Positions 43,010-63,937 of a DNA stretch of 64,000 nt are shown in pieces; positions within the stretch are counted from its first letter, which is position 1, and every line of letters starts with the position of its first letter. The stretch comes from an uncultured Planctomycetaceae bacterium (GTDB taxonomy: Bacteria > Planctomycetota > Planctomycetia > Planctomycetales > Planctomycetaceae), in assembly GCA_963813715.1 (NCBI GenBank), contig CAWFAK010000002.1:32001-96000 (forward strand), written 5' to 3'. The notes under the pieces were generated by a model that ran no database searches, had not been told where the DNA came from, and saw only the letters and a program-made list of their open reading frames with translations. A program made the position numbers and the translations under genes.

Positions 43010-44434
43010 GTGCTGCGAAAAGTTTTGCGTTATCTGACCTACCCAGTGTTGGTGGGCATCATTGTCGCGGCGGTGTGGTACTCGATCGTCAATTTTCCGG
43101 CAGACAAACCACGCGCTTCCGGAGGTGTTTACGGTAACCAGCAGGTGCCCAAGGAAGCTTGGAAGCCTTCCTCGAAATTCGACGCGGAAGCCAATGCGGG
43201 TTTCACTGTCGACACCGCTCAAAAGGACAACGCTCCGTTGGCCGGCAAAAGCGTGGGAGCCGACTGGCCGCAATTCAACGGGCCGCATCGCGACAACAAG
43301 TCGCTGGAAAAAGATTTGTCTCCGCGTTGGCCCAAAGAGGGACCCAAGCTCGCCTGGACGAGTCACGGAATCGGCAACGGTTTTTCGAGCGTCGCGGTCG
43401 TCCAGGGCGTTGTCTACACGATGGGGAATAAAGGGACCAGCGAAACAGTGATCGCGCTCGATGCCGGCACGGGGGAAAAGATCTGGAGCACGCCGGTTTC
43501 ATGGGCCTCGCATCCATCGGCCGGAGACGGCCCGCGGAGTACGCCCAGCGTGGGCCAGGGCTCGGTTTTCGCCCTGGGGGGAAACGGCGATCTGACGTGC
43601 CTCGACGCGAAGTCCGGAACCATCCGCTGGCGACAGAACATCATGAAGGAGTTTGGAGGCGACATTCCGGGTTGGGGGGTCTGCGAGTCGGTCCTCCTCG
43701 ACCAGAACCGGTTGATTTGCACGCCCGGTGGTAGCAAGGCCACTCTCGTTGCGCTCAACCCGGAAAATGGAGAAGTCATTTGGAAGGCGCTTGTGCCGCA
43801 GAAGGATCGCGCCGGCTATGCCTCACCGGTGGTCGCCGAGGTCGGCGGCCTGCGGCAGTACGTGCAGTTCACGAACAGCGGGACGGTCGGCCTGCGGGCC
43901 GACAGCGGCGACTTTTTGTGGCGGGACGACAGCGCGTCGAACGGAACGGCCAATTGCTCGTCTCCCCTGGTGGCCGGGGATTTTGTTTTCACCTCGTCCA
44001 ACTATGGAACGGGTGGCTCCCTTGTGAAGCTGGTCGCAAATCCCTCCGGCGTGAAAGCGGAACGCGTTTATCACACGCAGCGCATGTCGGTTCATCACGG
44101 CGACATGGTGATCGTCAACGGTTTGGTCTTCGGCGCCAGCGATCCCGGAATTCTCACGTGCCTCGATCTGGCGACCGGCAAGGTGAAGTGGGCGAGCCGC
44201 GCGGCCGGAAAAGGTTCGATCACCTACGCGGACGGACGGCTCTATCTCCGCACGGAGCAGGGAACGATGATCCTCGTGGAGGCCACGGGGGACGTCTACC
44301 ACGAACTTGGCCGGTTCGAGCAGCCGAATCGCGCCGCGAGCTCCGCGTGGGCACATCCGGTGGTGGCCGCCGGCCGACTCTTCCTTCGCGACCAGGATCT
44401 GCTCGTCTGCTACGATCTAAAAGGTTCGAAATAG
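43010..44434 (+). CDS. PQQ-binding-like (BamB-type) beta-propeller protein
   Basis: N-term TM, DWPQFNGPHRD, ALDAGTGEKIW repeats, GPRSTP, WAHPVVAAGRLFLRDQDLLVCYDL; GGAG before GTG 43010. Confidence 0.9.
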   Translation: MLRKVLRYLTYPVLVGIIVAAVWYSIVNFPADKPRASGGVYGNQQVPKEAWKPSSKFDAEANAGFTVDTAQKDNAPLAGKSVGADWPQFNGPHRDNKSLEKDLSPRWPKEGPKLAWTSHGIGNGFSSVAVVQGVVYTMGNKGTSETVIALDAGTGEKIWSTPVSWASHPSAGDGPRSTPSVGQGSVFALGGNGDLTCLDAKSGTIRWRQNIMKEFGGDIPGWGVCESVLLDQNRLICTPGGSKATLVALNPENGEVIWKALVPQKDRAGYASPVVAEVGGLRQYVQFTNSGTVGLRADSGDFLWRDDSASNGTANCSSPLVAGDFVFTSSNYGTGGSLVKLVANPSGVKAERVYHTQRMSVHHGDMVIVNGLVFGASDPGILTCLDLATGKVKWASRAAGKGSITYADGRLYLRTEQGTMILVEATGDVYHELGRFEQPNRAASSAWAHPVVAAGRLFLRDQDLLVCYDLKGSK

Positions 44435-44595
44435 CGAGGGGCGCTCTCTGTCGCCGCGTTCGTTGATTGCTTTACGAACCTGCGTTACGCTTTCGCGTGT
44501 TCGGCCTCGAGCGAGATCCCGCACTTCGAGTTGGATCTTCCCGAGATTGCTGACGGCTCGACCGTGCATGCGCCGTCGCGCGGCGTAGAAGCGCC

Positions 44596-47500
44596 TCAGG
44601 GAAGAGTTCTGGCCGGGCGGAAACCGAAATTGTAGCCATGCTCGGACGGTGCGGCGTCGCTGCGGTGTGATGGAATGGAGCAAATCCGGGCGATCGTTGA
44701 ACGCACCGCCGCGCAACACACGGTTTGAATCGGACTTGATCGTTTCGCTCTCGCTGCTGGCTCTTTTGGCATTTCGCTGCCACCGATCCTGACACCACTC
44801 GGCAACGTTCCCGTACATGTCGAACACGCCCAGAGCGTTCGGCCTCAAGCTGCCAATCGGCCAGGTTCGGCTGTGTGAGTTGTCCTGATACCAGCCATAC
44901 CGCTGCAATAATTCCAGCGACTCTCCGAACGAAAAACTGGTGTCGGTATTCGCCCGACAGACGTCTTCCCACTCGGTGTCGGTTGGCAGGCGATACCCCT
45001 TGCGTTGCACAAAGTTCGCTGGCGTTTTCATGCCTGCTGCGTAATCCCCCTTTTCGTTTGGCTCGTAGCACCACTCTTCCTTGGGAATGCCCTCCTGGCG
45101 GCTGAGCCAGTTGCAGTAGGCTGCTGCGGCAAACCATGTGACGGTTGTTGCCGGGCAATCGGGTTCGGGGGCATAGCGTCGAATTTGCACGTAGCTGGCG
45201 GTGAACGTCATGAATTGCGCCACGGTCACTTCGTGGGTCGCTATTGCGAACCGGTAGGCGCTGGCGGCTCTGTTCGGCCGTCGTTTGCCGCCCATCAGAG
45301 AATGTTTGTCGCCCACCAGAGAATCCATCGGGCCATTAACCAGGACGAAGGTCTGGCCTTGTGAGTTGATGAACCAACGCCGGTTTGTTCCGCTGTCTTT
45401 CGCCGCCGTCTTCTCGAACGCTGCCTTCTCGAACGCTGCCTTCCGCAGCTCGGCGTCGAGACGGGTGACCGTGTCGACTGCTTCGTATTGCGCGAGCGTC
45501 CATCCGGCCGCCGAGTGGACGCCGGGGTCAGGATCGTTCCGGTAAAAGGCCGACAACTGATTGACTAACGTCCGCCGCTCCTGCTCGGAGAGCTTGCCTG
45601 CGTCGAATTCACCCAGGGCAAGAATCAAAGCCTGCCGAATCGAAGGATCCGATTCCTGCTCCAGGCGATCGAAGAGAATTCTGTAATCGGCTCCCAAACG
45701 AGCCAGTCGGTCGACAATGAAACTCCGCAGCGACGGATTTTCACTGTACTTAAGCAGCGGCCAGACGCGCTCTTGTTCGCTAAAGCCCAAGAGGCAGACA
45801 GCGGCGTTGGCTTGTTTCTTCCACAACCCGTCTCGGACAGTCGCTTCAGCGCCGGAAGGCGGGGACTGACTCAAGATCTGGCGGCACTCATCGACGCACG
45901 CACTGCGATGCGCACTGAGGGCCTGCAGGAACGGCAGAAACTCCCGGTCGTTATCCGCCAGCAGGATCAGATCCGTGAGCTTCTTCGGCTGGTCTGCCAA
46001 GAAATCGGCGATCGCTAAGGCTGCCAACGGCCGTTCTGCGTCCCGAACGGGTCTGCGATCTCGGTAGCGAGCCTCAAGTGGCTCGACGAGCTGCGTGCCG
46101 ACGGGTCGCAGCATGATGATCCACAGATTGGATTCTGTCGGATCGACCGACACCAGAGCCGTGACGACGTCCGAGCGGACCTTTGGCCATTCCGTATTCT
46201 CCGGGTCATAAGCCGCCAGAGCCGCCGCAGCATGCAGGCGCGCGCTGCTTGTTCCCTTCTTGACCGCCTCCCACAGCCGTTGTTGCACACGGCTTTTATG
46301 CGGCTCCATCAACTTGATGATCACCGGGACTTCCTCGACCTGTACCTGGGCACGAGTAAGTGCTCCGACAGGTAATCGGCTTGCGACGGATCGTACGCAA
46401 GCAGGGCGAGGCTGGCATGCAGCTTCTGCTTGCGGCTGAACTCTTTGCCGTCGACGACGTTCCTCAACAGGGGAACGGCTCGCTGGCGGTAGTTGTCGAC
46501 GTCGCCGACGAGATCAAGGACGTTGGCGGTCTTGACGCCCAAGAGCGTTTGCACCAGGACCCGGGCGTTTCGATCTTGATACCGTGCGTTGACGGCGAAT
46601 CCCACCGCAATCACCGCGACGATCGCCAGGCAAATCAGGCCCGATCGAGTGCCGTGCACGCGCCCGGCCTTGCCCATCATGTTTCGTTCCGACGAGGCCC
46701 ATCTTTTTCTGTCGGTCAGCAAACGGATGTTGAGAAACTCCCAGAGCGACGGCAGATGGCGGTTCTCTCGCTTCTGACTCCACAACGCCGCGCGATCGGC
46801 CAGTCGCAACTCGGCCCGACCCTGCCGAGTCTCCCTTTGCTTGCGAGTGAGCCAGTCCCGCAGCGAATGAACCAAATAGTCGTGAGTGAGTTGGTAATGC
46901 TTCTGGCCAACCTCGATGGCGGCCTTCGTCTCATCGGCCGCTTCAGTTCCCTCTGGGTCGGTTGGGGTGATGAACCGGATTTCACTGTCCAAAATCCGCA
47001 ACAGATCTTCGAACTCCCTGGGATGACTGCCGTAGCCGGACGTTTCCAGGAGTTCCTGATACGAACGCATGTTGCCTTTGATGTCAGTGCCGGATTCAGG
47101 CAACAGGGCCTTGAGCGTCGCGCGAGCCGCTTTCTGGTGCAGACGATGCTCGGGAGATGCGGTCGACGCGCTGAACGTCTCCTCGAGGAACGTGACTCCC
47201 ACGCCTTGGGTGCCGCCGACCTCAACAAGCGTGGAGGGCGTCCACGGCTTGCCCTTCATCATTTCGGCGAAGAGGGCCAGGCGGACGCAAACGATTTTGC
47301 CATCTTCAGCCAGGCCGGTTACGGCCTGCCTTAAGAAGGTGTTGGCCTCGGTTGTCGAGTCACTCTCCTTTTCCGGGAGACGGGCGAAAGCTCGCCCGAA
47401 GGCACGCAAGATCTTCTGCGCGTGATCGACATCGACGAGATCGACCAAGCCGAGGTTACGTCCTTCGACCAAAGGGACTTCCAACTCGCGCATAAACCGG

Positions 47501-49086
47501 CTGACCCCGAGCCAGAAGTCATCGCGGACCATCACGATGCACTGGGCCCGTCCGCCATCACACTGCCGGACCGCCTGGACCAACTCGGTGTTCTCTTCCT
47601 TGCCTTTGCTGTGGAGCCATTGCTCGAACTGGTCCAGGACGATCAGCACCTTCGTGCCGTGGGGAAGGTCTTGTCCGCGTCGCAGCGCCGCCAGCGTTTC
47701 TTTCAGGTCCAGATCGACGGGCAACGCCGGACAGCGTTTGCGTAGTCCGTGCAGCAACCTGGTTTCGGTCTCAAGGGCGGTTGACTCGACGTAGACCGGT
47801 ACGACATGCTCGCCCAGTCGAGGGAGCAGGCCCGCCTTGACCAGCGAGGATTTGCCACACCCCGATGAACCGTAGATCAGGCCGACGCGGAACGTCTCGT
47901 CCGGATCGGTCTGTTCGATCCGGTTCTTCCAGAAGCGGATGCTGTCAGGCAGGCCGTCCCGGTCCCGCGGGCCAGGAAGCAGTTCCAGGAAAAAGTCAGC
48001 ATCCTGTGCATCGAAAGATCGCAACCCTTTGGGCACGATCTTGATCGTCCGGCCGTCGGAGGAGGGGGTTCTCGCGGCCTCGCGGCGTTCAACTGGTGTC
48101 GCTTTGGTCGCTTGCTCGATGGCACCCTGTGGCAGCAGATCGAGAAAGTGCCGCAGATCGTCGGAAAAGTCCTTAGCCGTCGTGTAACGGTCGGTGGCCC
48201 GTTTCGACACGGCCTTCAGGCAAATCCGCTCGAGTTCCTTGGGAATGGAATCGTTGGTCTGCCTGGGGGGCTTTGCCTCTTTGCTGGTGATCAAGAAGAG
48301 GGATGTTGACCTATTCGACGCTCGGAAAGGATTCGCACCCGTGAGCAGTTCGTAGAAGACCACGCCCAGGCTGAAGACGTCGGATCGTCCATCAACAAGA
48401 TGTCCTTCCCCGCGAGCCTGCTCTGGGCTCATGTACGTCGGCGTTCCGACAAGTTCATCCTGTGAGCCTTTGCCAAAGTCCTCGTCGCGAAGGGCGAGCC
48501 CAAAATCAGCGACGTAGGGCTTCGCCTTGTCATCAATCAGGATGTTTTCCGGTTTGATGTCTCGGTGGACTAATCCCTTCGTGTGAGCATAGTGAAGCGC
48601 TTCGGCAACGGTGGCGACAAGTTGCGCCGACTCGGCAGCAGGCAACCGATTGTCCCGGGTTCGGTGCCGCAGATCAGACCCTTCGATAAACTTCGACACG
48701 ACGAAGCACAGGCCGTCCTTTGTCCGCCCCACGTCATGAACGGGAACGATGTTGGGGTGGTCCAGACGAGCGAGAATGCGGGCCTCGGTCAGATACGCCT
48801 CGGCATCCGCAATTCGCTCGGGATGCGGAACCTTGACGGCGACACGACGCTCTAAGTCTTCGTCATAGCCCAGGTACACCGTGGCAAAACCACCGCAGCC
48901 AAGGACTCGCTCAATTCGGTAACGCCCAATCCGGTCGGGAACGGGGACCGCCTCAAAGACCGGGGACGCGCCATCGCTCCGGGGAGGAATCGTGGTGCTC
49001 TGGGCGATCCACGGTTTCGTCAATTCCGGCGGTTGGAACTTCGTCCCAAGAGGCTCGTTCGAAGTGGGATCGCGAGGGGAATCCAT
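44596..49086 (-). CDS. Ser/Thr kinase + P-loop (STAND-like) NTPase + helical repeats + FGE-sulfatase (SUMF1) domain; frameshifts near 46340 and 44665
   Basis: LGCGGFATV, HRDIKPEN, DFGLA, GTPTYMSPE; GSSGCGKSS, IVLDQFEQ, YQLTHDYL; HEVTVAQF, YRLPTDTEWE, DMYGNVAEW, RVLRGG, GFRPART. Confidence 0.88.
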
Positions 49087-49372: not shown

Positions 49373-49765
49373 ATGTCCCGCGTCCGCATGGGCAAGGTTC
49401 AACTGAGGATAATGCGTGTGCTCTGGGATCGCGGCCGGGCCAGCGCTCGCGAAATCACCGAACTCCTCAACCAGGACGAGCCGATCGCCCACAGCACCGT
49501 GCAGACGCTGCTTCGAAAGCTCGAAACCAAGGGGGCCGTCGGGCACGACGCGGCCGAGCGCACGTTTGTCTTCTTTCCCCGCGTCGCCGAGGAAAACGTG
49601 CGCCGGGGCGCGACGCATGATCTCGTCGAGCGCGTCTTCGGCGGTTCTCCCGCGCAACTGATGTCGTACCTGCTGAAGAACGAGCGGGTCTCGAAGAAGG
49701 AACTGGAAGAAATTCGTCGCCTGATCGAGGAGCGGGCCCAAGAGCCAAAGAGGGGCAAGCGATGA
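49373..49765 (+). CDS. BlaI/MecI/CopY-family repressor
   Basis: QLRIMRVLWDRG, STVQTLLRKLETKG, RTFVF, VFGGS, ELEEIRRLI. Confidence 0.93.
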   Translation: MSRVRMGKVQLRIMRVLWDRGRASAREITELLNQDEPIAHSTVQTLLRKLETKGAVGHDAAERTFVFFPRVAEENVRRGATHDLVERVFGGSPAQLMSYLLKNERVSKKELEEIRRLIEERAQEPKRGKR

Positions 49766-52700
49766 ACTCCACACAATTCACGGCCGACGTCAACACGCTG
49801 ACATCGTTCGGCGCGGCACTCGCCGCCTTCGTCCTGATCCAGACCACGGCCGTTCTCGCCATTGGACTCCTGTTCGCGCGAACCTTTCATCGCCGCGGGG
49901 CAGCCGTACGGTCCGCTTGGTACCGGATCATCCTGGCTGCGGCGATGCTCACACCATGTGCGTGCGCTCTGGTCGGACCGGCCGTCGCGCGGGTTCACAT
50001 CCCAATCCCCTTTCTCAATCGGCCCGTCCACATCGCGGGCGATCCAATCGTCGCCACGGCGCCGCTCGTGGATCGGCCATCGCCATTGGCCGAAGACCCG
50101 TCGACAAACTCGCTGATTCCGCGCGAACGGCCGCCGGTCGTACCGCCTCAACCCGCGGTTTTCCCGGCCGCCGCATCGGACCGACTCATTCACGCCGACC
50201 AACCTGTGCGGCCCGCACCACCGCCATCCGCACCGGGCTCATCGTGGTTCAACTTTGGGGTTGTCGCGTTTTACATGCTGTGGCTCTTGGTGTCGGCATT
50301 GCTGATTGCGCGACTGAGCCGTTCGATCCTCGGAGCAATGCGCCTCATCCGCACCGCCGCGGATCCGGAGCCGCAGGATGCCGCCCGTCTCCGGCAGCTC
50401 GCGGTCGAGCTACGCGTGCGCGCTCCGGATCTCAAGCGCAGCCCGTTCGTGACGGGCGCGTGCGTATTCGGTTGCCGACGCCCTGTGATCCTGCTATCCG
50501 AGACGGATTTCGGAATCGGTGATGACGTCCTGGTTCACGAGCTGGCGCACGTCGCGCGACACGATTGCATCTGGCAGCTGATGGCCGAATGTGCCGTGGC
50601 GATGCTCTGGTTTCAGCCTCTGTTGTGGCGTTTAAAAAGCCGGATGGAGGAATGCGCGGAGGAAGTCTGCGACGACTACGTTCTGCAATTCGGGGCCGAC
50701 CGCTGCGGTTATGCCGATCAACTGACCCGGATTGCCGAGCGTTTTGTGCCGCTGGCAACGCAAGTCGGGATCGGAGTGGTCTCCCTCCGTTCTTCCCTCC
50801 GCCACCGCGTGACACGCATTCTCGACTCCTCGCGTCGATTGCAAACGCGGGCGGGACGGAAAACCATCGCGGGCCTATTGTCCGGGGCGGTTGCCGTGGT
50901 TCTGGCAGCCAGCTTGATTGATGTCGGTCGCCAACCCGATCGCGCTGCAGGTGCCGCGACCGACGTGGTGCTGAGGCCCCCAGCGACTGATCAACCCAAG
51001 TTGACACCCGCGAAGGAAGAACACGGTGACGTCGTCACCGTTCGCGGGCAGGTGTTGACCGCCGAGGGTCGGCCAGCGGTGGGAGCGAAGGTCTCGGCGA
51101 TTTGGGACGTGCAGACGTGGGACGTGTGGTATCGACCGATCGCGACAGTGAACACGGGGCCGAATGGTCTGTTCGAGCTTGTCTTTCGAAAATCGCAATT
51201 CGGCAAGAGCCCTAACCGCATCGATGAGTGGCAACAAACAGTGATCGAGGTCCAGGCCGACGGCTGCTGCTTCGAATGGATTTACTGGCCCAAAATCGAT
51301 GCAACGAGACCGCTCGTGTTCAAACTTTCGCCTGATTTTCCGATCCATGGACGTGTGGTTGACCTGCAAGGGCAGCCGGTGGCCGGCGTGGCGGTTTGTC
51401 TCCTTTCTGTGAGTGAATCGCGCAACGCAAGCCTCGATTCCTGGCTCAAACGATTCAAAGGGGATAGCCCGTCCGGAGCGGAGTCCGCTCCAGCTATTGG
51501 CCGTAGGCGGCCGCCGCGCGATCGCACTGACCCGTGGGCCGTCACGAATCAAGAGGGCCGTTTCGTGATCCGAGGAATCCACGCCGAGCGCTTCGTCACC
51601 GCGGTGCTGCGAGGGGACTCGATCGCGTATGAGGAACTCTCGATCGTGACCAAGAACACGCCGCCAGTCGTCCGCGGTCCGTCCGATTTCGAGCGTCTGA
51701 TCGACAAGGTCTACGGGGCTGACTTCACCCATCCCGCCGCACCCGGCCGATCGATCGTCGGTACGGTCCATGACGCCGCCACGGGCAAGCCGCTGCCCGG
51801 GGTCGCCGTCGAGGCATGGCGAATTGCCGGCTCGAATCGAGAGGGTTTCGGAGAGCCAAGAGTTTTGACCGACGCAAACGGGCAATACCGGCTCATCGGC
51901 ATCCCCAATGGGAAAGGCAATGAACTGTTGCTGCGGCCGAGCGATGATCAGCCCTACCTCAAGCGACAAGTGGACGTCCCCGCGTCACCGGGATTTGAAG
52001 CGATCAAATTTGACATTCCACTGCACCGCGGGCTGTGGATCACCGGACGAGCCACCAACAAGGTCACCGGTAAACCCGTCGCGGCGCGGCTGTACTATCT
52101 TCCATTTCGCGACAACTCATTCGCACGTCAGCTCCCCGAATTTCGCAGCCGCTCGGTGGACGGAGAAGATCGTCCGACTTGGACCTGGGAAGACGGCACG
52201 TTTCGGATTGTCGGGCTGCCCGGACGGGCAATCGTCGGCGGATGGACTGCGTCCGCCGAACACTACCGCGGGCGTCGGCGCCTCCGAAATTCAAGGGATT
52301 AACAAGAACGGCTGGTTTCCGACTTACGGCTATTTCCAGGCCGGAAGCAAATGGCCCGACGTGCTCAAAGAGATCAATCCGCGAAGGAGTCGAAGAAGTC
52401 CGTTGCGACCTCGTCTTTGACCCTGGTGAGACGATCCACGTCTCGCTGATCGACCGCAACGGCAAGCCGGTGAGCGGCTCGAATGTCGTCGGCGGATGGA
52501 CCGCCCCGAGCGACGACGCACTCCCCAAGCCGTCGACGTTCGCCATCGTCAATCTGGCGCCCGGGCGAGAAACGGCCGATTTTGATCCGAAACGACCACT
52601 TGAACCTCGGCAAGTTTTTGCTGCTCGACCCGACCGAGAAGACGCCAAAGTCGTTGACGATTACGCTCGAGCCGTGCGCCACGATCGTCGGCCGGCTCGT

Positions 52701-53766: not shown

Positions 53767-54550
53767 TGTGGTCACCTACTTTCACCAGGTAGTTGACCAC
53801 AGAGATAGTTGACCACGGGATGCCGGCTCGGGACGGGACACGTTGTTTCACCGAGAAAGTCCCGAGAAATCTCCCCTCACGCTTGACCTGTCCAGCTCGA
53901 CTGTCTTCGAGCCTGAGACCCGAAGGGAGCTCGCCGAAGTCAGAGCCGAAGTTCCATCCGAAACGGATGGGCGAGGGGAAAGCGGGACGGGATAAGGACC
54001 GGACAGAGCCTGGCCGGTGGGTCCGGACACTTTGATTCAATAGTGAGATGACCCACAAAGTAGTTGACCCACCACCCGCTTGAGTCCAAGGTCCAAGGTC
54101 CAAAGTCACGGCGGACTGCACCGGCAGGCCCGAATGTGTCTTGGGGGGGCCCCGTGGCTGCGGGTCGCGACGGCGGGACCGGGACGGGACACGTTGTTTT
54201 ATCGAGAAAAACTCGGCGAATTGGGTCGCACGCCCGGCCTACTGTGCGGGACGGACACATCCCTTATGCCCAGGGTCCAAAGGTCCTGGACTACACCGGC
54301 GGGCGTTTCTAGATGGGCCTCGCGGGGACGGGACGGGACACTGGGACCGGGACGGGACAAGTTGTTTTATCGAGAAAATCCAGGGAAATCGGCCCTCACC
54401 CCGCCCCTCTTCGGCTCGACTGAGCTCGCCGAAGTTCAGCGGACTGGGAAAGGGTGAAGAACTAGGACGGGACACTGCGACCGGACGGGACTGGGACGGG
54501 ACACGTTGCTTTATCGAGGAAAGCCCGGAGGTCCGGTCCGGTCACTTTCT
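53767..54550. repeat. Repeat mosaic: four 29-bp GGGACGGGACACGTTGTTTTATCGAGAAA copies plus nested palindromes
   Basis: Copies at 53830, 54181, 54349 and 54493; shared GAGCTCGCCGAAGT (53927, 54422), TAGTTGACC (x3), GTCCGG.CACTTT (54021, 54536). Confidence 0.85.
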
Positions 54551-54639
54551 TTGAGAGGTCGTCGACCGAAGAGAGAGGCGGCCGCAGCGGACACAGGTTG
54601 TCCGACGGAAGGTGAACTTTGGACCTCAGTCCGCCTTCG

Positions 54640-57397
54640 TCAGTTCCGTGACGCCTTCGCGTTGGGCTCCGTCGCCACGCGGGTGGGGTCGGCTTCGGCG
54701 CTCATCACGCGGCCGAAGGTGAAGTGGGAGCCCATCGGCAGCGTCTGGATCTCCTCTTTATCCGCGACCGTGCGGCGGAGCGTGACTGGGTACGGGACGG
54801 GGAAATCGCTCGATTCGTTGGGCTTGAGCGTGAACGGTCCGCCCCACGGGCTTTGCGGGCCGCGGACTTCGTAGGTGATTGGCTCGGACGTTCCGTTCGT
54901 GATGCGGGTCCGCGCGGGCAAATACGAGAGCGAGATGAACGGGCCGATCGTCTCGATCTCGGACACCCGCAGATTCGAAGTGCCGATCAGGCGGTCCTTC
55001 ATCGCGACTTCGTCGACCAAGTCGAGCTTGCCGGCCGCCTCCCAGGCGGTCCGCAACAGCTCGGCGATTGCCTCCGGATGCAGCGTTGAATCGGTGGCCG
55101 CATAGCCGGCAGCGAAATGTCCCTTCACGTCGATCTGTTCGGGAGACGTTTTCTTGAGCCGGAACGTCCGCTCGGTGAAGGCCGGCTCGCGGACGGTGAG
55201 CTTGAACTCCTGCACGGCGCGGAGATCGAACTCGGCCGCCGGTTGCCACTTGGCCTGCGACGGGGATGTTTTGATTTCGATGGACACCACCAGGTGCGGC
55301 AGCCCGAGCTGCACGAGACACTTGGGGACGGCGTTGGCCGCGTTAGTATCGGCCGATTTGGTATTGGCCGAGTTCGCGTCGGCCGACGATTCGCCAATAC
55401 CCCGGGCGGTCACGGGGACGGTGGACTCGATGGCGTTACAGAGAATGGGCTCGACCGCGAGGAACCGCGTGCGGATCTGGAGGTTGTTGCCGTATCGCAA
55501 GAGGTCGGGCACCGCCTTGGCGATCTGGTCGATCTCGCCGAACGCCCCAAATTCCTTGATCGACATATCGTTGGCGTTCATCACCGCCGCGCCCGAGTCG
55601 ACGATGGTTCCCGTCAGTCCTTCCGCCATCGCCCCGGAGAATCCCAGGGTGAAGCCGCGGCTGACGTTTAAGTTCTCGAGCTTCACGGCCGGGCGCTCGA
55701 CTCGGCGAACTGGACGCGACGTGGGATTGAAGCCGGGCTGCGCGAAGACGGCCCCCAGGATCATGCCCACGCCGCCCTGGTTGACGTTCAGGGAATCGAC
55801 CCACAGGCGGTATCGCGGCTGCAGCGCCGGCATCGGCCAGCCGCCGATCTCGCGGGTCGACGTCAGCGACTTGTCGAGTTCTTGTTCCAGCCGCTGGACG
55901 AGGCCGGGCACGGCGTCGACGACTTTCTGTTCGATTTCGGTCTTACGCTCGTAGGCCCCCTGCACCAGCTTGGACGACACGGTATTGGCGATGCGGTTGC
56001 GGATCAGCGGCGTGCCGACCGCGACGCCCACCTGCGGCGTGGTCACGTAATAGTTGTCGTTGGGGATGTCGAACTGGCGTCGGCCGATTTCAAATGTCAC
56101 TCGCTTATCGACGACGGTCGGCCGCACATCGAAGATCAGCCAGACGGGCCGCACCTGCCCGACGACGATATCCATCGGGCCGGCGCTCGCGGCGATCATC
56201 CGGCTACGCACGGTGGTCGAACCGATTTCCGCGATCAGGTTTCGCAGACCCAGGTTGATCGTCACCCAGCCGTTGTCTTTGGTCGAAACGACGACTCGTT
56301 CGAGCGTGCCGCGATAGTTGATGCCGGCCAGCGTAATGCGGAAGCGGCTGACGACCCCCTGGCGGCTCTGATAGATATCGGGCGCAGTCGCCGAGAGGGC
56401 GTCGGCCGGCACCAGGTCCGGCAGCGCGTAGCAGAGCGTTTCGATCGCCTGTGGATCGAGGTGGACATAGACCGCCTGCGGAATCTCGACGCCCGGCACG
56501 AACGGCTGCTGGAAGTCGTGCTGCATCTGCGGCTTCTTGAGCGGCCGCCGGACGCTTTGCAGCACGCTTTCCGGCTTCGGCTCCGTTTGCGGGTTGAGCA
56601 TCCATTCGTAGACCGCGTCGTTATTGAAGACGATGTTCAGGATGTTGTGCCGCACCTCTGGCAGCAGCGTGAAGTAGGCGCGGCCGCCCGCGTCGCGGAC
56701 CGCTTCGATCATCCGCTTTTGCTCGGCCGGCTTGACCTCGAGGTCCTTGCTGCCGTGAAACGCCCAGACGGGGACGTTCTTGAGGTTGCGGGCCTTCGAC
56801 ACATCACCGAGCCCGGCCACCGGCACGATCGCCGACCAGCGCGACGGCGTGGCGGCGGCGATGTTCCAGGTGCCGAAACCGCCCATCGACGCCCCGGCCA
56901 GAATTTCGTGCTGGCGGTCGACGTTGAACTCTTTTTCGACCTCGTCAAGGATCGCCAGCGCTCGCTTGGCGTCGGGTCCGTCGGTCCGCCAGCCGACAGC
57001 CGCCCGCCCTTCCACGTCTTCGCACTGCGGGAAGACGACGAGCATGGGGAGCGTCTCGGCGCGGGCTTCGATCTGCGGACCGATGCCGCCGATCAGGGGC
57101 AGCCGTGCCGTCCGTCCCGCGGGAGCCGGCTCCGTGCAGGTAGAGCAGCACGGGCCATTTCTGGTCCGCCCGGTAGGCGGCCGGAACGAAAACGGTGTAT
57201 TTATGCTCGCCGGCGTCGTCGCGGTAGATCCGCCGGAGAAAGCCGGTTTTCGGTGCTCCGGCCGGCTGCGTCTGCCCGTCGGCGGCGCTCGCCAGGCTGA
57301 CGGCGACGACGGCTGCGTACAGTGCCGCAAACGAGGTCACCGGCACTGTCAATCGACGAAACGATCCCCAAACGCTCGTGCGCGTCAGCATCGACAT
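54640..57397 (-). CDS. Secreted alpha/beta-hydrolase (esterase/peptidase) fused to a long C-terminal region resembling a BPI/LBP fold (frameshift near 57105)
   Basis: Signal peptide; YTVFVP..WPVLLYLHGAG, VVFPQC, GASMGG, FHGSKD, PEVRHN; then ~600 aa beta-rich region. Confidence 0.85.
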
Positions 57398-57786
57398 CAG
57401 CCCCTCGTCTCAAAAATTTTCGGCCGCCCCTCGTGCGAGAGAGGGCTGCGCGCCGGCCGTGCATCCTTGCGTGGCTGATTCGATTCCGTCGAAACGGTCG
57501 CGTCTCTTGTATCGGCGGGCTGGCAGACTCGACTGTCCGAGCCGGAACAGCACGCATCGTGAAACCCCGAGGTTTCTTCGGGCGAGGCGGCACAATTGAA
57601 GCGGCCGTTGCGTCGTGGACTTCACGCGCGAGCGGCGCCCGAGGCACGCGCACGACAGGTCGCAAAGTTTCCGATCACCGCGCGACCCGCTGTGCCGAAA
57701 CATCTGGCACGGCTCTTCGCGCGCCAAGCGAGATGCGGCGGCGGGCAGAGTGGGCGAATCGCCGGAAATTCGACTACGATCGGGAG

Positions 57787-58737
57787 ATGGCCCTGAAGGA
57801 ATTGCAATGCACCGTCAACGCGCGGCAAACCGGGCGGATCGATCGGGTTGTGCAGGCGCTCACCGGTCGGTCGCGAGGCGACGTCCGCGGGCTCTTCGAT
57901 CAAGGCCTGGTGCGACTTGACGGCGAGATCTGTCCCCACGCGGGCGCACTGGTGGCTGAGGGGAATGTCGTGAACGTCCGGCAGGATCCGCGCATTCACT
58001 ATCGCTCCAAACCACGCCAACGGGCGGCGTCGGGTACGAACGCGGCGACCGGGCCGTTCCGGCTGGTGTTCGAGGACCGCGACTTGATCGTGGTCGATAA
58101 GGCCGCGGCGGTGCTCACCGTGCCGACCGATCGCGGTGAAACCAATACGCTCCTGAACGCCCTGACCCGTTCACTCGAACGGCGGGGCCAGCGCGGACGG
58201 GTGACCGTCGTGCACCGGCTCGATCGCGGGACCTCGGGCTTGTTGGTGTTCGGCAAGAATCCGCTCGTCGGCCGCGAACTCCAGGCGCAATTTCGCGTCC
58301 GGAAAGCCGAACGAGAATATGCGGCCCTCGTCGCCGGTCGGATCGAGCGATCGGCCGGCACGTTCGACAGCCGCTTGGGAACCAGTCGCAGCCTGCAGCG
58401 GTACTCAGTCCGCGAGGATCGCGACGGTGAACGGGCTGTTACCCATTACCGCGTCGAACGGCAGTTTGCCGACGCGACTCTTGTTCGCGTGACGCTCGAG
58501 ACCGGCCGGCGGAACCAAATTCGGGTCCATTTCGCCGAGGCCGGCCACCCCGTGCTCGGCGACGGACGCTACGGCGTCGAGGCGGCGCGTCATCCGGGCT
58601 GGCGCTATAAGCGGTTGGCGCTCCACGCGACGAAGCTCGGCTTCGATCATCCGCACACGCACGAAGGGTTGCGATTCGAGTCACCCCTGCCGCCTGAGTT
58701 CGAATCGTTCATCGCCCGACAACGCCGGAGCGACTGA
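57787..58737 (+). CDS. RluA/RluD-family pseudouridine synthase with S4 domain
   Basis: RIDRVV, FEDRDLIVVDK, VHRLDRGTSG, LETGRRNQIRVH, HPVLGD, LALHA. Confidence 0.94.
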   Translation: MALKELQCTVNARQTGRIDRVVQALTGRSRGDVRGLFDQGLVRLDGEICPHAGALVAEGNVVNVRQDPRIHYRSKPRQRAASGTNAATGPFRLVFEDRDLIVVDKAAAVLTVPTDRGETNTLLNALTRSLERRGQRGRVTVVHRLDRGTSGLLVFGKNPLVGRELQAQFRVRKAEREYAALVAGRIERSAGTFDSRLGTSRSLQRYSVREDRDGERAVTHYRVERQFADATLVRVTLETGRRNQIRVHFAEAGHPVLGDGRYGVEAARHPGWRYKRLALHATKLGFDHPHTHEGLRFESPLPPEFESFIARQRRSD

Positions 58738-58770
58738 GTTCGACGCGAGCCAACACGTCGATGCGAAGAA

Positions 58771-58830: not shown

Positions 58831-58864
58831 CTCTTCCTGGCGAATTGCCCGACAGCCGCACCCA

Positions 58865-59253
58865 CTAGTGCCACAGGCCGAGGATGGCGGCGAAGATCAA
58901 GAATCGCACGACATGATAGCTCGAGTCGATGAGCCAATGCCGCCACGGGCGATTCTCGAACGTGTCGTTGACGCCGAAGCTCGCCGCCACCAAACAGACG
59001 CCCACGATGAGGCCTTGCCGCATGGCAAAGCCGGGATCGGGAGCCGCGCCCAACAGCAAGGCGAATCCGGACGCGGCCACGAGCTGCAGCACAAACAGCA
59101 GAAGGAACATCTGCGGCGTCGGCGTGGGGGGCTTTTGAATTTGCGCGGCCCGAATCCAGACGTGCAAAAAACCCCAGGGCGAATACCAAAGCAGGCCCAG
59201 GGCGTAGCCGGCGAGTGCCGCCACGATGCTGCCTCCCAGTTGATGCCAGACAT
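58865..59253 (-). CDS. DUF1761-family membrane protein (5' frameshift)
   Basis: MSGINW..., ALGLLWYSPWGF, NDTFENRPWRHWLIDSSYHVV. Confidence 0.8.
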
Positions 59254-59281
59254 GCTGCTTCCTTACTCGAGTTGCGATCGA

Positions 59282-60041
59282 TCAGGATTTGCGGCCGATA
59301 TGGCGTGCCGCAAAATCGGCGACGGACTGCAGAGTTTCCGCAGCGCACCACATTTCGACAAGCGCACTCCCCTCGGCGGCCGTCAATTGCCGGGCCGAGT
59401 CGCACAGGGGCTTGCGCAGCGCGCGTTTCGTGGCGGCGTAAACGGCGCTCGGAATGGCGGCCAGTTCGCTGGCCACGTCGCAGGCCCGTTCGATGAGGCG
59501 GTCGGCATCGACCAGCTCGTCGACCAGGCCGCGAGTCGAGCGCCTCCTCGGGCGGCCAGGTGCGGCCGCTGAGAATCAGCGTCGCCAAGTGTTCCGGCGG
59601 AGTGGCGAACCGCGCGATCTCGAGCGCCCACGAGGGGAACTCGACGCCGACGCGAATCTCCGTGAGGCCGACGCGGGCCTTACCACGGGCGAGGATCCGC
59701 TGATCGCAGGCCAACATGATGATCGCGCCGCCGGCGATCGCGTGTCCGTTCACCGCGGCCACCAGCGGTTTGGAGAACGTCGCCAGTCGCTCGAATCCGG
59801 CCACCATCCGCGGGACGAAGCGGCGGACATAATCGGGGCCGCCACCTACCAGCGCAGGCAGATCGACGCCCGCTCCGAACACGGCTCCATGTCCCGTCAG
59901 CACGACCGCCTTCGTCGGACCGCGCTCGAGAGATTGCAAGCATTCGTCGAGCGCCTGGGTGAATTCGAGATTGAGCGCGTTCCCTTTGCCAGCGACCATT
60001 CGCAAGAGGGTGACGACGCCTCGCTCTTCCAGCTCGATCAT
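59282..60041 (-). CDS. Enoyl-CoA hydratase/isomerase (frameshift near 59535)
   Basis: FGAGVDL, KPLVAAVNGHAIAGG, GLTEIRVG, C-term YAATKRALR. Confidence 0.9.
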
Positions 60042-60583
60042 GGTGTCTCTCCCGCAACGGATCGGTCGTGCGGCGCATCATAGCGGATCCCCTCGGCGCT
60101 TGGTCGTATTCGCAAACTGGCCGTCCGTATCTGCAAACCAGGCCGACGTTATGCGGAACGGGCTCGAAATTTGCGGCTCCCGGGCAGGCTCGGAGCGAGG
60201 CGCGGGATTCGTGCGAATAACGGCAAGAACGGGTTGCTGAACTGGGATCCGGCCGAATTGTGTGGTTCGGCTGGCGCCGAAGTGGGCCGAAAATGACCCG
60301 GGAAATCGCTGAGATCCTGCCCGGATTATCGGCTCTTAAGCTTAACGTAAGGTGTTGCAACATTTCAGTCTCGCTCTGGTTGCGGCTGTCTCGCGATTTG
60401 GGCATAGTGAGCGCAGCCGCAGACCGTCGGTGCGCCAACGCGGGCCGTGGCCAACGCGGGTTGGCCGCTGTCGACCGAACGGTTGGTCCCGCGCCTTTTG
60501 TATTCAACATCGTGTATCAGCCCAGTCGGGTTTTCGATCCGCCGCGACGGCGGAGCTTCCAAACAGCAGTCAGGAGAAACGTC

Positions 60584-61333
60584 ATGCTGAGAAAGAGTTT
60601 GGTTCCGTGCGTGGCGATTGCCGCCCTCGCTTTGATGGTTGACGTCCAGGTTGCCAACGCGCAAGGGCGCCGCGGTGGTGGCGGTGGCATGATGCGCGGC
60701 CCGCAAGGCGTCAACGACATTTACGTTGCCAGCCAAGCCGCCGCCCAAAAAGAAGTCAACATTAAGCCCGACCAGAAAGAAAAGATCGACGATCTGTCGA
60801 AGGACGTCCGCGAAGAAGTGATGCAGGCCATGCAGGCCTCCGGCGTCAGCTTCCAGGGCTTGCAGGATCTCTCGCCTGAAGAGCGTCAGAAGAAGATGGC
60901 TGAGATGGGCGCCAAGATGGCCGAGGTCTCGAAGACGGTCAACGAAAAGTTTGCTCCGAAGCTGGCCGAGATCCTCGACAAGACGCAGGCCAAGCGGATT
61001 CACGAAATCGCCATTCAGCTGGCCGGAGCGCCAGGCCCTGCTCGACGCCGGCGTCCAGAAAGATCTGAACGTGACGGCCGACCAGAAGGAAAAGCTCACG
61101 TCGATCAACAAGGACTTCCAGAAGCAGCTTGCGGAAGTGCCTCGCGCCGAGCGCAGACGAAGATGCACGAGCTCAATGAAGAGCAGCTGGCCAAGTCGAC
61201 CGAACTTCTGACCAAGGACCAGCAGGCGCAGTTCGCGTCGCTGAAGGGCAAGGCGTTCGACACGAAGTTGCTGCGGCCGCAAGGCGGCGGACGTCGCACG
61301 CGCGCGAACGCGGGCGGTGGCAACGGCCAGTAA
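60584..61333 (+). CDS. Secreted helical protein with LTXXQ-like (Spy/CpxP-type) repeats (internal frameshifts)
   Basis: AGGAG RBS; signal peptide; ILDKTQAKRIHEI, VTADQKEKL, LLTKDQQAQF. Confidence 0.75.
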   Translation: MLRKSLVPCVAIAALALMVDVQVANAQGRRGGGGGMMRGPQGVNDIYVASQAAAQKEVNIKPDQKEKIDDLSKDVREEVMQAMQASGVSFQGLQDLSPEERQKKMAEMGAKMAEVSKTVNEKFAPKLAEILDKTQAKRIHEIAIQLAGAPGPARRRRPERSERDGRPEGKAHVDQQGLPEAACGSASRRAQTKMHELNEEQLAKSTELLTKDQQAQFASLKGKAFDTKLLRPQGGGRRTRANAGGGNGQ

Positions 61334-61343
61334 TTGATCCTCA

Positions 61344-61393
61344 GCGCAGCCCTCCGGGCTGCGCAGTTGACCAGCGTAGCCTCCCGGCTGCGC
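61344..61393. terminator. Twin GC-rich hairpins after the stop codon (terminator or REP)
   Basis: GCGCAGCCCTCCGGGCTGCGC and GCGTAGCCTCCCGGCTGCGC; no poly-U tail. Confidence 0.45.
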
Positions 61394-61548
61394 CAGTCTG
61401 TACAGAACGCACGGCGCGCGGGAATTCAGCGGCGACAAGGCCGTTGAATCCCGCGCGCCGTGCTGTTATAACCGCGCAGTTGCGCCGTGCAGGGCCTGAT
61501 GACGAACTCGGAAAACCGCGACCTCCGTTTTACATTCGGGAATCAGTC

Positions 61549-61893
61549 ATGGCGAAGGACGATGTTAAACCTCCGATCACACCAGCCGCACCAGCCGCCG
61601 GAGACACGCCTCCCCAGACGATGGTGCACGTCGACGATTCGTCCTGCGTGGCCGGCTACGCGAATTTCTGCCGCGTTTCGAGCACGGCCGAGGAGCTGAT
61701 TCTCGACCTGGGGCTCAATCCGCACCCCTATGCCACAGGGGAAGCCACGGTCAGAGTCTCGCAGCGGATCATCATGAATCACTTCACGGCCAAGCGGTTG
61801 CTGGGAGCGCTGGCCGCGGCGCTGCAGCGCCACGAAAACGCGTTCGGCACGGTCGAGACCGACGTTCGCAAGCGCGTCCGCTCGACCCCGTAA
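61549..61893 (+). CDS. DUF3467-family protein
   Basis: GYANFCRVSSTAEELILDLG...VSQRIIMNHFTAKRLLGAL..HENAFG. Confidence 0.85.
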   Translation: MAKDDVKPPITPAAPAAGDTPPQTMVHVDDSSCVAGYANFCRVSSTAEELILDLGLNPHPYATGEATVRVSQRIIMNHFTAKRLLGALAAALQRHENAFGTVETDVRKRVRSTP

Positions 61894-61962
61894 GCACCCG
61901 ACCGGGGGCGCGGCGCATCACGATCGCGGCCCCGCCCGAACCCTACCAGCGAAGCTGCCGCG

Positions 61963-62637
61963 ATGCCTGACCACGGACCTCCGGACAATCCCGCGATGGG
62001 CCCGCATGCGCCCGGCGACGAGGGGCCCTTCTGCGAGGAGATTCAACACGCGCAGATCAGCGCCGTAGTGCCCGAACGGGTCGCCCGCGGCGTCTTCAGC
62101 ACAGGCGCGGTGGTCGTCCAGGGGCCGCACGAATTCATTCTCGATTTTTTGCTCCGCATGTCTCAGCCGCAGCAGGTGGCCGCCCGCGTCGTGCTGCCGC
62201 CGGGCGTGGTGATGCAATTCATCGCGGCTTTGTCTGAGAATTTGAAGAACTACGAATCGAAATACAGCATGCCGCTGGTGCCCGCGCCGCAAACGGCTCC
62301 GGGAGCCGGGGCCGGCGGACATGTTTCCGCGCAGGAACTCTACGAGCAGCTCAAGCTGCAGGATGACGTCCTGTCAGGCAGCTACGCCAACGCGGTGATG
62401 ATCGGCCACACGCCGAGCGAGTTTTGCTTCGACTTCATCACCACGTTCTATCCGCGGTCGGCCGTTTCGTGCCGCGTGTTCATGGCGGCCCCGGGTGTGC
62501 CGCGGCTGCTCGAGTCGCTCAAGCACTCGTTCGACAAGTTCCAGCAAAAATCGGCGCAGCACGCGAACCCGCAGACGCCGCCCCCGCCCCCTGCTCCGCC
62601 GACTCAGCCTCCTCCCGAGGGACCCCGCGAGTCGTGA
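61963..62637 (+). CDS. Tandem two-domain DUF3467 protein
   Basis: GVFSTG..EFILDF..ARVVLP..YESKY and GSYANAVMIGHTPSEFCFDF..CRVFM. Confidence 0.82.
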   Translation: MPDHGPPDNPAMGPHAPGDEGPFCEEIQHAQISAVVPERVARGVFSTGAVVVQGPHEFILDFLLRMSQPQQVAARVVLPPGVVMQFIAALSENLKNYESKYSMPLVPAPQTAPGAGAGGHVSAQELYEQLKLQDDVLSGSYANAVMIGHTPSEFCFDFITTFYPRSAVSCRVFMAAPGVPRLLESLKHSFDKFQQKSAQHANPQTPPPPPAPPTQPPPEGPRES

Positions 62638-62673
62638 ATCGGCGGGATCTGGCTCGACTGATTTCGATTACGT

Positions 62674-62732
62674 CCCTCGCTGAGGCTTCCGGTTAGTGTG
62701 CGCGAGTCACCAACCCGAAGCGTCGGCGAGGG
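62674..62732. repeat. REP-like doublet family C between convergent genes
   Basis: CCCTCGCTGAGGCTTCCGGTTAGT ... ACCAACCCGAAGCGTCGGCGAGGG. Confidence 0.8.
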
Positions 62733-62785
62733 CTCTTTGATTGCATCAAGCTCCCGAACGGACTGAAGAGCCGGGGCGAGCCAGG

Positions 62786-63937
62786 CTAGCGGCGGGCCAG
62801 CTTCTTCAGCACTTCGACGCCCCGTTCAAGCGTGCGACGCTCGGCCGAATACGATAGGCGGAAGTGCGTGTCGCGGTCGCTGAAAACGTTACCGGGGATG
62901 ATCAGCAGATTGTCGCTTGATCGCCTCGGCGACGAATTCGCTCGCCGTTCCCCAAGGTGCCTTGGCGAAGAGGTAGAACGCGCCGCCGGCCGGCGCGAAC
63001 TCGTACAACCCGGACAGCTCCGCCACCATAAAGTCGCGGTTGCGGCGGTATTCGGCGACGCGCTCGGAGACGTCGACGTCGCAAGCCGTGAGCCCCGCCC
63101 ACTGGACTGGCTGTGGCGCGCAGACGTAGGTGAACTGCTGCAGCTTGATCATCTGCTGGATGACCTCGGCCGGGCCGTGCGGCGTAGCCCAGCCGCAGCC
63201 CGGTCATCGAGTGCGATTTGCTGAAGCCGTCGATGACGATCGTCCGCTCGTTAAACCGGGCCGGGCTGATGAACGGCCCGTCGTAGACAAACGTGCGATA
63301 GATCTCGTCGCTGATCAGGGCCACGTTGCGCTCGGCGGCCAACTCGGCCAGCCCCCGCAGGTCGGCTTGTCGAGAGCACGGTCCCGGTCGGATTGGCCGG
63401 GCTGTTGCAGAGGATGACTTTGGTGCGATCGGTGAGCGCCGCGCGAACCTTGTTGAGGTCGACGCGGAAATCAGGATACGTGTCGACGGCGACCGGCGTG
63501 CCGCCGACGAGCGTCGTGAGGTGCTTGTAGACGACGAAATACGGATCGAAGAACAGCACCTCGTCGCCGGGATTGATCAGCACCGACAGGGCCAGCATCA
63601 AGCCGCCGCTCGTGCCGCTGGTGACGAACAACGAGCGGTCGGCATGCTGGTATTCGGCGTCGACCCGCTCCTGCAGCTTGCGCACGAGCGGGGCAATGCC
63701 CTGCGTGGGGCTGTAGGCATTACGCCCCTCGTCGATGGCCTTCTTGAGCGCGTCTTTGACCGGTCGCGGCGTGTCGAAATGAGGCTGCCCGATGCTCAGA
63801 TTGATCGGGTCCTTCATCGTCGCCGCCAGATCGAACACCTTGCGGATGCCGGAAACGTCGATCCGCTGCATCCGCTCGGCGATCCAGGCGCGCTTCCCGT
63901 CCGCGCGAGAACGGGAACCGGTGTCGGACGCGGTCAT
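62786..63937 (-). CDS. Class I/II PLP-dependent aminotransferase (frameshifts)
   Basis: INLSIGQP, NSPANPTG, ISDEIY, GFSKSHSMTGLRLGY, GAFYLF, HFRLSY. Confidence 0.92.

Follow-up and report, generated by a model that had tools for sequence, protein, structure and literature searches.

Gene and domain layout

The window analysed here, the whole stretch of 64,000 nt from an uncultured Planctomycetaceae bacterium (GCA_963813715.1, contig CAWFAK010000002.1, positions 32,001-96,000 of the forward strand), carries on its minus strand a gene whose product reads as a Sec-exported protein of three parts, an esterase, a predicted double TULIP lipid-transfer fold and a C-terminal beta-sandwich; the export is deduced from a signal peptide recognized by eye. 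The gene was presented as two open reading frames (ORFs), 56945..57397 with 150 amino acids (aa) and 54640..57330 with an 896-aa frame, which are two frames of one gene. The 150-aa ORF begins like a signal peptide and contains the start of the esterase up to ...LHGAGSRGTDG, after which it continues as an Arg/Pro-rich nonsense frame, while the 896-aa frame resumes the esterase with ...RLPLIGGIGPQ. The intact homologue P0003, which comprises 918 aa and is 99% identical over the C-terminal 632 aa, reads through this position as ...GTDGRLPLIGG... without a break.

The features of the gene are listed below, with residues numbered as in P0003 unless they are given as residues of the C-terminal model described further on. 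Confidence values are those of the predicted local distance difference test (pLDDT).

54640..57397, minus strand: whole gene, about 918 codons plus stop, from the ORFs and the intact P0003 with one extra base bridged
57284..57397, minus strand: putative Sec-type signal peptide, residues 1-38 (basic N-region, hydrophobic core, A-S-A then A-D-G), read by eye; low pLDDT in the full-length model
57106..57107, minus strand: single extra base that breaks the frame within the esterase domain, from the alignment to the related locus L001 and from soil-metagenome contigs
56587..57250, minus strand: alpha/beta-hydrolase esterase, residues ~50-270, from Pfam, a PDB sequence search and Foldseek
56887..56889, minus strand: codon of the catalytic Ser (Ser170) in GASMGG (56878-56895), from motif and alignment
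56743..56745, minus strand: codon of the catalytic Asp (Asp218) in HGSKD (56743-56757), from motif and alignment
56647..56649, minus strand: codon of the catalytic His (His250) in VRHN (56644-56655), from motif and alignment
56497..56586, minus strand: linker of about 30 aa between esterase and TULIP part; in the full-length model, pLDDT 62-63 in 10-residue blocks over 281-300 and below 50 at 289-294
55729..56496, minus strand: predicted N-terminal TULIP barrel, model residues ~15-270, with a strand, helix A, long twisted strands and long helix B; boundary approximate
54910..55653, minus strand: predicted C-terminal TULIP barrel, model residues ~296-543; boundary approximate
55321..55428, minus strand: low-complexity insert in the C-terminal barrel, model residues ~371-406, rich in A/N/S/D/T; mean pLDDT ~49-66 per 10-residue block
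54706..54909, minus strand: C-terminal beta-sandwich, residues 830-897 (TRITN, Y, WGGP, G), among the most conserved parts
54643..54705, minus strand: disordered C-terminal tail, pLDDT below 50

The tail at 54643-54705 ended with ...SRN in the close orthologues shown (P0003, P0004, P0008, and P0019), which was not the case in the paralogue described below, and no known sorting signal was found to fit this ending.

The esterase domain

The esterase domain matched the Pfam family PF00326 with 27.4 bits against a cut-off of 22.6, and PF12146 and PF00756 more weakly. A sequence search of the PDB returned the esterase 3doh_A (E 2e-17) and LC-Est1C 3wyd_A (E 5e-14), and the same two entries led the esterase matches when the full-length model was searched by Foldseek, with a root-mean-square deviation (rmsd) of 2.7 Å over 237 columns at 28% identity for 3doh, and a template modelling (TM) score of 0.88 with an rmsd of 2.0 Å for 3wyd. 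They were followed by CE1 feruloyl esterases, the 'phospholipase/carboxylesterase' 4q82, and depolymerases of poly(3-hydroxybutyrate) (PHB; 8daj and 9byu).

The hydrolase motifs GASMGG, HGSKD, and VRHN were all present and in order, together with the HG motif. Their conservation was counted in alignment A2, which comprised the C-terminal part of the window protein and 76 homologues, hand-picked and mostly long, drawn from 37 close matches and 150 listed cluster representatives; each count refers to the rows in which the position is occupied. The catalytic Ser was kept in 66 of 66 rows, the Asp in 67 of 67, and the His in 72 of 73, with the His of the HG motif retained in 67 of 68. The domain is thus a serine alpha/beta-hydrolase esterase by its motifs, by Pfam, and by its match to 3doh and 3wyd in both sequence and fold. 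It is best explained as a compact serine carboxylesterase of the EstA / LC-Est1 / 'PHB-depolymerase-type' group of alpha/beta-hydrolases.

The homologues bore the source name 'poly(3-hydroxybutyrate) depolymerase', which was assigned automatically by the Joint Genome Institute (JGI). When the 896-aa frame, which misses the first ~97 residues, was scored against the NCBIfam models for depolymerases of polyhydroxyalkanoate (PHA) and PHB, it reached 36.1 bits against a cut-off of 150 for NF050058 and 20.7 against 107.85 for TIGR01840, placing it outside both families. Since these scores are far below the cut-offs, the name is not backed.

Predicted fold of the C-terminal region

The C-terminal region of ~530 aa had no match in Pfam or NCBIfam. 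A model of residues 265-896 of the long frame (window:54643-56538:-) was predicted using AlphaFold2 (AF2) with the A2 alignment, and it reached a mean pLDDT of 89.5 and a predicted TM score (pTM) of 0.85, with 502 of the 632 residues at a pLDDT of at least 90. In this model, a strand, a helix, several strands of 12-19 residues and a long helix occurred twice in succession, followed by eight short strands.

Foldseek placed LBP, BPI, and CETP on ranks 1-5 among PDB structures, with E 7e-17 for LBP (4m4d), E ~1e-15 for BPI (1ewf and 1bp1; TM by target 0.49-0.52 over ~555 columns), and E 3e-15 for CETP (2obd; TM by target 0.53). Ranks 6-23 were taken by OrfX1-OrfX3, P47, OrfX2, Der f 7, Der p 7, a beta-carotene-binding protein, and JHBP, and Takeout and SPLUNC1 appeared lower in the list among other folds. 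All solved TULIPs in the match list that named a ligand in the title carried a small lipid or hydrophobic molecule. In VIA-align, BPI was the best match, and its residues 2-455 were aligned to model residues 20-543, almost end to end. The rows of the structure comparison, the columns of which carried no labels, were as follows.

BPI 1ewf: 15.0; 425 of 456; 6.8
LBP 4m4d: 13.8; 413; 9.4
CETP 2obd: 13.2; 428; 5.7

A second model, covering the full length and built on a different alignment of 33 rows (pLDDT 81.9, pTM 0.73), gave the same top matches. Since two models led to LBP, BPI, and CETP, the full two-domain fold is supported at the level of predicted structure. As modelled, the region has the BPI-like double-TULIP architecture, with helix A, a long twisted sheet and helix B in each of two barrels in tandem, and it aligned with the solved proteins over both halves.

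The fold had been proposed in an earlier note on this DNA, written from the sequence alone, and the prediction agreed with it. The note had pointed to a complete Ser-Asp-His hydrolase, the three motifs of which were present at the positions given above, followed by an unannotated region at ~56500-54920, which coincides with the double-TULIP part of the model (56496-54910), and a small beta tail, which corresponds to the sandwich at 54909-54706. It had also paired seven segments by eye with human BPI. All seven exist, are colinear, and fall in both halves on the elements expected of a TULIP at these places, namely a strand followed by helix A, the long strands, and helix B, but no match to a BPI sequence was obtained by Pfam or by the PDB profile search described below, and the pairings were not shown to exceed chance at the sequence level.

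In the sandwich, Asn548 (C-terminal numbering) was invariant in both a 15-row and a 77-row alignment, and Tyr556 was invariant in the former and nearly so in the latter. When the esterase (residues 49-292) was docked to the TULIP part plus sandwich (295-897), the score was 0.21, with the mark at 0.32. No PDB chain found by Foldseek with the full-length model spanned both the esterase and the TULIP halves.

Family size and distribution

The homologue search yielded 37 close homologues. When 1.84 billion cluster representatives were searched exhaustively with HMMER, 225 matched at E<=1e-3, 170 at E<=1e-10, and 88 at E<=1e-30. The fused form, in which the match starts near residue 270-290 of a protein of 860-920 aa, made up most of these representatives. 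Rows of 640-690 aa retained the last esterase motif, and those of ~530-630 aa started within the TULIP part; the shorter rows therefore look like cut gene calls and not like stand-alone proteins. Stand-alone double TULIPs were accordingly not recognized in the family, although no dedicated search for a shorter form was made.

The phylum was sampled evenly with 400 other genomes. Of the 20 that belong to the same family, 17 had a match, at one or two distinct loci each, and the 380 genomes from outside the family gave 1 weak match (E 3.7e-4 over 113 residues). A scan of named genomes gave 18 loci that covered nearly the whole protein and one more that was cut by a contig end, and these 19 were labelled as Planctomycetaceae, Schlesneria, Planctomyces sp., Planctomycetales, or Planctomycetota. 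The scan kept 60 further loci, which matched the esterase only and came from many phyla. Close DNA relatives occurred in soil and peat metagenomes, and there was no named cultured strain among the homologues listed by the protein searches.

The same genome contained a paralogue of 958 aa on the minus strand of another contig (L081:1456-4329, G000 contig 9), which was 31% identical over the C-terminal part and in which a signal peptide, an esterase (GWSMGG), a double TULIP, and a sandwich were arranged in the same way. Judged by sequence, the fusion is real and belongs to a large conserved family in which the catalytic triad is kept throughout and which is focused on one planctomycete family. 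The survey thus bore out the idea of a single gene, with the fused form dominant among the 225 representatives and intact fused homologues being numerous.

The frame break and assembly quality

In the alignment with L001, a locus of ~95% identity from the closest named relative, the window had one extra base at 57106/57107. Since this base lies inside the esterase domain, the break does not separate the esterase from the C-terminal region. Contigs covering the site were obtained from soil-metagenome runs, and in 4 of 4 runs they were without one letter there; one of these contigs differed from the window in just 2 other letters out of 198. In runs X1 and X3, parts of the stretch were without contig cover, to which no meaning is attached. 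A point against reading the break as an assembly error is that the runs contained under half of the sampled words, which means that they represent relatives and not the same strain.

The genome that contains the window comprised 7.49 Mb in 18 contigs, with a completeness of 82.6%, and the window differed from L001 at 32 indel sites over ~9 kb, most of them of 1 base. These indels point to errors in one or both assemblies, and together with the completeness and the metagenome contigs, they indicate that the assembly is probably indel-prone. The frameshift at 57106/57107 is probably an assembly error, and the gene is therefore probably intact in the organism, a soil bacterium of the Planctomycetaceae.

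The indel sites, mostly of a single base, were unevenly spread, with 28 in window 58848-63466 and 4 in 54486-58769. L001 had an extra base of its own elsewhere in the esterase-TULIP gene, at the point that corresponds to window 55744, and its 2755-nt match contained 5 stops when translated straight. The enoyl-CoA hydratase gene at window 59282-60041 (minus) also looked frameshifted, as its ECH domain ended at profile position 166 of 251 and was followed by an Arg/Gly/Pro-rich stretch. A 64-aa ORF in another frame resembled the C-terminus of enoyl-CoA hydratase, with no Pfam match, and indels between the window and L001 fell at 59342, 59536, and 59629.

Genomic neighbourhood

The esterase-TULIP gene stands alone. 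On its start side, a pseudouridine synthase gene (57322-58737, plus) is oriented divergently, with a DUF1761 gene and the enoyl-CoA hydratase gene beyond it. Past the stop, ~1.3 kb of repeats are followed by a gene for a BlaR1-type M56 peptidase. This gap contained four copies of a ~43-nt repeat with the core GGGACGGGACACGTTGTTTTATCGAG at window 53823-54528. Genome-wide, the core GGGACGGGACACGTTGTTTTATCGAG occurred 67 times with <=2 mismatches (39 forward, 28 reverse), often in clusters, and the control with the reversed pattern gave 0. No Rfam match was found for the downstream repeats, and the repeat looks like a dispersed element of the repetitive extragenic palindromic (REP) or miniature inverted-repeat transposable element (MITE) type.

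Further on (window 49762-52302, plus, and 44417-49086, minus), the M56 peptidase, which carries CarboxypepD_reg, is followed by a Ser/Thr kinase with a STAND NTPase and then by a HEAT plus FGE-sulfatase protein. In L001, the kinase ORF was located much closer behind the esterase-TULIP gene, and the region of the M56 gene had no match there. A gene for an extracytoplasmic function (ECF)-type sigma factor was found directly beside the homologue in 3 of 16 related loci (L005, L012, and L013).

Published precedent

Bacterial double TULIPs have been described in a preprint on Bdellovibrio (Caulton et al., bioRxiv 10.1101/2025.09.09.675085), which reports crystal structures of TipA as a BPI-like, lipid-holding, bilayer-binding double TULIP. 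By its account, TipA carries several lipids, is secreted into prey by the predator Bdellovibrio, and adheres to and destabilizes bilayers, and TipB, a small beta-sandwich, opens TipA and clamps its N-terminal sheet. Double TULIPs fused to other domains, 'including enzymes', are reported there as matches of a Foldseek search in AFDB50 (bioRxiv 10.1101/2025.09.09.675085). One of these, A0A142WTQ2 of Planctomyces sp. SH-PL14, is described in the text and in the legend of Fig. EV2 as a double TULIP with an esterase-like enzyme on its N-terminal side and, on its C-terminal side, a sandwich of TipB-like topology, for which a position on helix A and the sheet of the N-terminal barrel is predicted (bioRxiv 10.1101/2025.09.09.675085).

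Since this architecture is the one found here, the fusion has already been described, though only as an AlphaFold DB model mentioned in passing, and the statement in the earlier note that no description of it was known has to be withdrawn. Apart from this preprint (bioRxiv 10.1101/2025.09.09.675085), a full-text literature search gave nothing relevant on the architecture among the matches listed. By analogy, the sandwich of the window protein may play the part of TipB, which is a separate adapter and prises TipA open.

Proposed function and alternatives

BPI and LBP have apolar pockets in which acyl chains of lipopolysaccharide (LPS) and phospholipid are bound, and CETP has a tunnel in which it carries neutral lipid esters. 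Like BPI, LBP, CETP, and TipA, the double TULIP of the window protein would bind a membrane or aggregate lipid by its acyl chains, and would either bring a lipid ester to the enzyme or anchor the enzyme on a lipid surface. The tethered, lid-less esterase would then cut the ester bond of a lipid that is otherwise out of reach, with the fused sandwich gating the barrel in the manner of TipB. Such a protein could act in the envelope or outside the cell, in lipid turnover or lipid scavenging. We put the probability of this reading as a whole, an exported three-part protein with TULIP-assisted cleavage of lipid esters, the function of which we infer, at roughly 60%. A stricter version, in which the TULIP lifts the lipid out of the membrane, the sandwich gates it, and the ester is passed directly to the tethered esterase in an 'extract-and-cut' machine, is put forward tentatively. 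In the broader reading, it is the coupling of extraction to hydrolysis, and not the fold, that accounts for almost all of the doubt.

Several results weigh against TULIP-assisted lipid-ester cleavage or against parts of it. The nearest esterases in the PDB were short-chain, feruloyl, xylan, or PHB esterases, with no known lipases among them, and the flanks of the 16 related loci contained no recurring gene and nothing pointing to lipid metabolism. The TM scores to BPI and CETP were modest (0.4-0.53) and the rmsd values high (6-9 Å), which means that the barrels stand at a different angle, or differ in detail, from those of the eukaryotic proteins. The Pfam families PF01273 and PF02886 were unmatched in the window protein at E<=1, and no LBP_BPI_CETP family (PF01273, PF02886) was found in 15 family members. 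Since the search of the PDB with the A2 profile was swamped by esterase matches, a C-terminal-only alignment of 15 sequences (A4) was built, and its profile returned two unrelated matches from all PDB sequences (best E 1.1) and no BPI, LBP, or CETP. The ESM Atlas gave weak leads only (0.76-0.81, all <0.9), some of which (0.76-0.79) led to clusters carrying PF02886. In terms of sequence, the protein therefore does not belong to the Pfam families LBP_BPI_CETP and LBP_BPI_CETP_C, and the likeness to BPI is real at the level of the predicted fold and not at that of sequence.

The same domains could also make up a membrane-attacking weapon, in which the TULIP binds or disturbs the outer membrane of another bacterium and the esterase serves as a phospholipase-type toxin in competition or predation. 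The best VIA-align match, BPI, the deposition of the esterase relative 4q82 as a 'phospholipase/carboxylesterase', and the bilayer-destabilizing TipA that a predator is described to secrete into its prey (bioRxiv 10.1101/2025.09.09.675085) fit this picture. The presence of the gene in 17 of 20 family genomes, with one or two loci each, looks like that of a housekeeping function and not of a variable weapon; no immunity-like or secretion-system gene recurred beside the homologues at the 16 loci, and the only export signal seen was that of the Sec pathway. A weapon is thus an unlikely explanation.

Cleavage of a polymer such as PHB/PHA, cutin/suberin, or feruloylated xylan, with the TULIP as a surface anchor like the substrate-binding domains of PHA depolymerases, would account for the name given to the homologues by their sources, the weak NCBIfam matches, the PHB depolymerases (8daj, 9byu) and CE1 feruloyl esterases among the PDB relatives, and the close DNA relatives in soil and peat metagenomes. 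It is nevertheless improbable, since the NCBIfam scores of 36.1 against 150 and 20.7 against 107.85 argue against such an enzyme and the ligand-titled TULIPs in the match list all held a small lipid or hydrophobic molecule; we also know of no TULIP that serves as a polymer-binding module, although no search aimed at this was made.

The extra base and the two overlapping frames of the window as given would make the gene a true pseudogene of this strain through a 1-nt insertion, whatever the family does elsewhere. We consider this quite improbable, because the contigs of relatives in all 4 runs were without the base, the remaining frame runs for 896 codons without a stop and matches the intact homologue at 99% identity over the C-terminal 632 aa, and many 1-nt indels separate the window from L001, which has its own at the place of window 55744. 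An artefact of modelling behind the TULIP match, with a different fold of the C-terminal region in reality, is very improbable in view of the two agreeing models, even though the fold is predicted and not solved, has no sequence-level support, and received ESM Atlas leads that all fell below 0.9.

Should the 'extract-and-cut' version prove correct, a lipid-transfer fold would act as the substrate channel of an enzyme that is kept across the Planctomycetaceae for envelope lipid turnover or scavenging. BPI-like double TULIPs were long regarded as eukaryotic, and there are few solved bacterial examples. Since the substrate of the esterase should name the cargo of the TULIP, the family opens a direct route to the question of which load a bacterial TULIP holds, and since the envelope lipid biology of planctomycetes is poorly known, a tractable candidate is useful. 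Current pipelines label these proteins as PHB depolymerase or hypothetical. To the printed mention, the analysis adds the size of the family (225 representatives), its presence in 17 of 20 genomes, the occasional duplication, the universal triad, the conserved sandwich, and a frameshift that is likely to be artefactual.

Comparison with known systems

The closest counterpart is A0A142WTQ2, which is also from a planctomycete and has the same three-part layout according to its published description (bioRxiv 10.1101/2025.09.09.675085), on which the comparison is based. From the shared architecture and bacterial group, the two proteins likely belong to one family. The comparison with TipA and TipB likewise follows the published description, as their structures were not in the PDB copy that was searched. 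As described, the Bdellovibrio TipA is a hairpin-locked dimer with no enzyme domain and with TipB encoded by a separate gene, whereas sandwich and esterase are fused in one chain here (bioRxiv 10.1101/2025.09.09.675085).

The eukaryotic proteins BPI (1ewf/1bp1), LBP (4m4d), and CETP (2obd) share the two-barrel fold at 9-12% identity in the structural alignments, and the window protein differs from them in being bacterial, in its two extra domains, and in a disordered insert of ~35 aa in the C-terminal barrel. The clostridial P47 and OrfX1/2/3 are bacterial tandem TULIPs as well, which were matched by Foldseek with E values from 5e-9 to 2e-4. On the enzyme side, the Thermotoga maritima esterase (3doh) and the C-terminal domain of LC-Est1 (3wyd) are the closest solved relatives at 25-29% identity; the accessory parts of these proteins differ from those of the window protein, and none is a TULIP.

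Acyloxyacyl hydrolase, which deacylates LPS, combines a saposin-like lipid-binding subunit with a GDSL esterase. The working logic proposed here, in which a lipid-binding module and an esterase act together on a membrane lipid, would be the same, but both folds are unrelated, and the likeness is one of analogy only.

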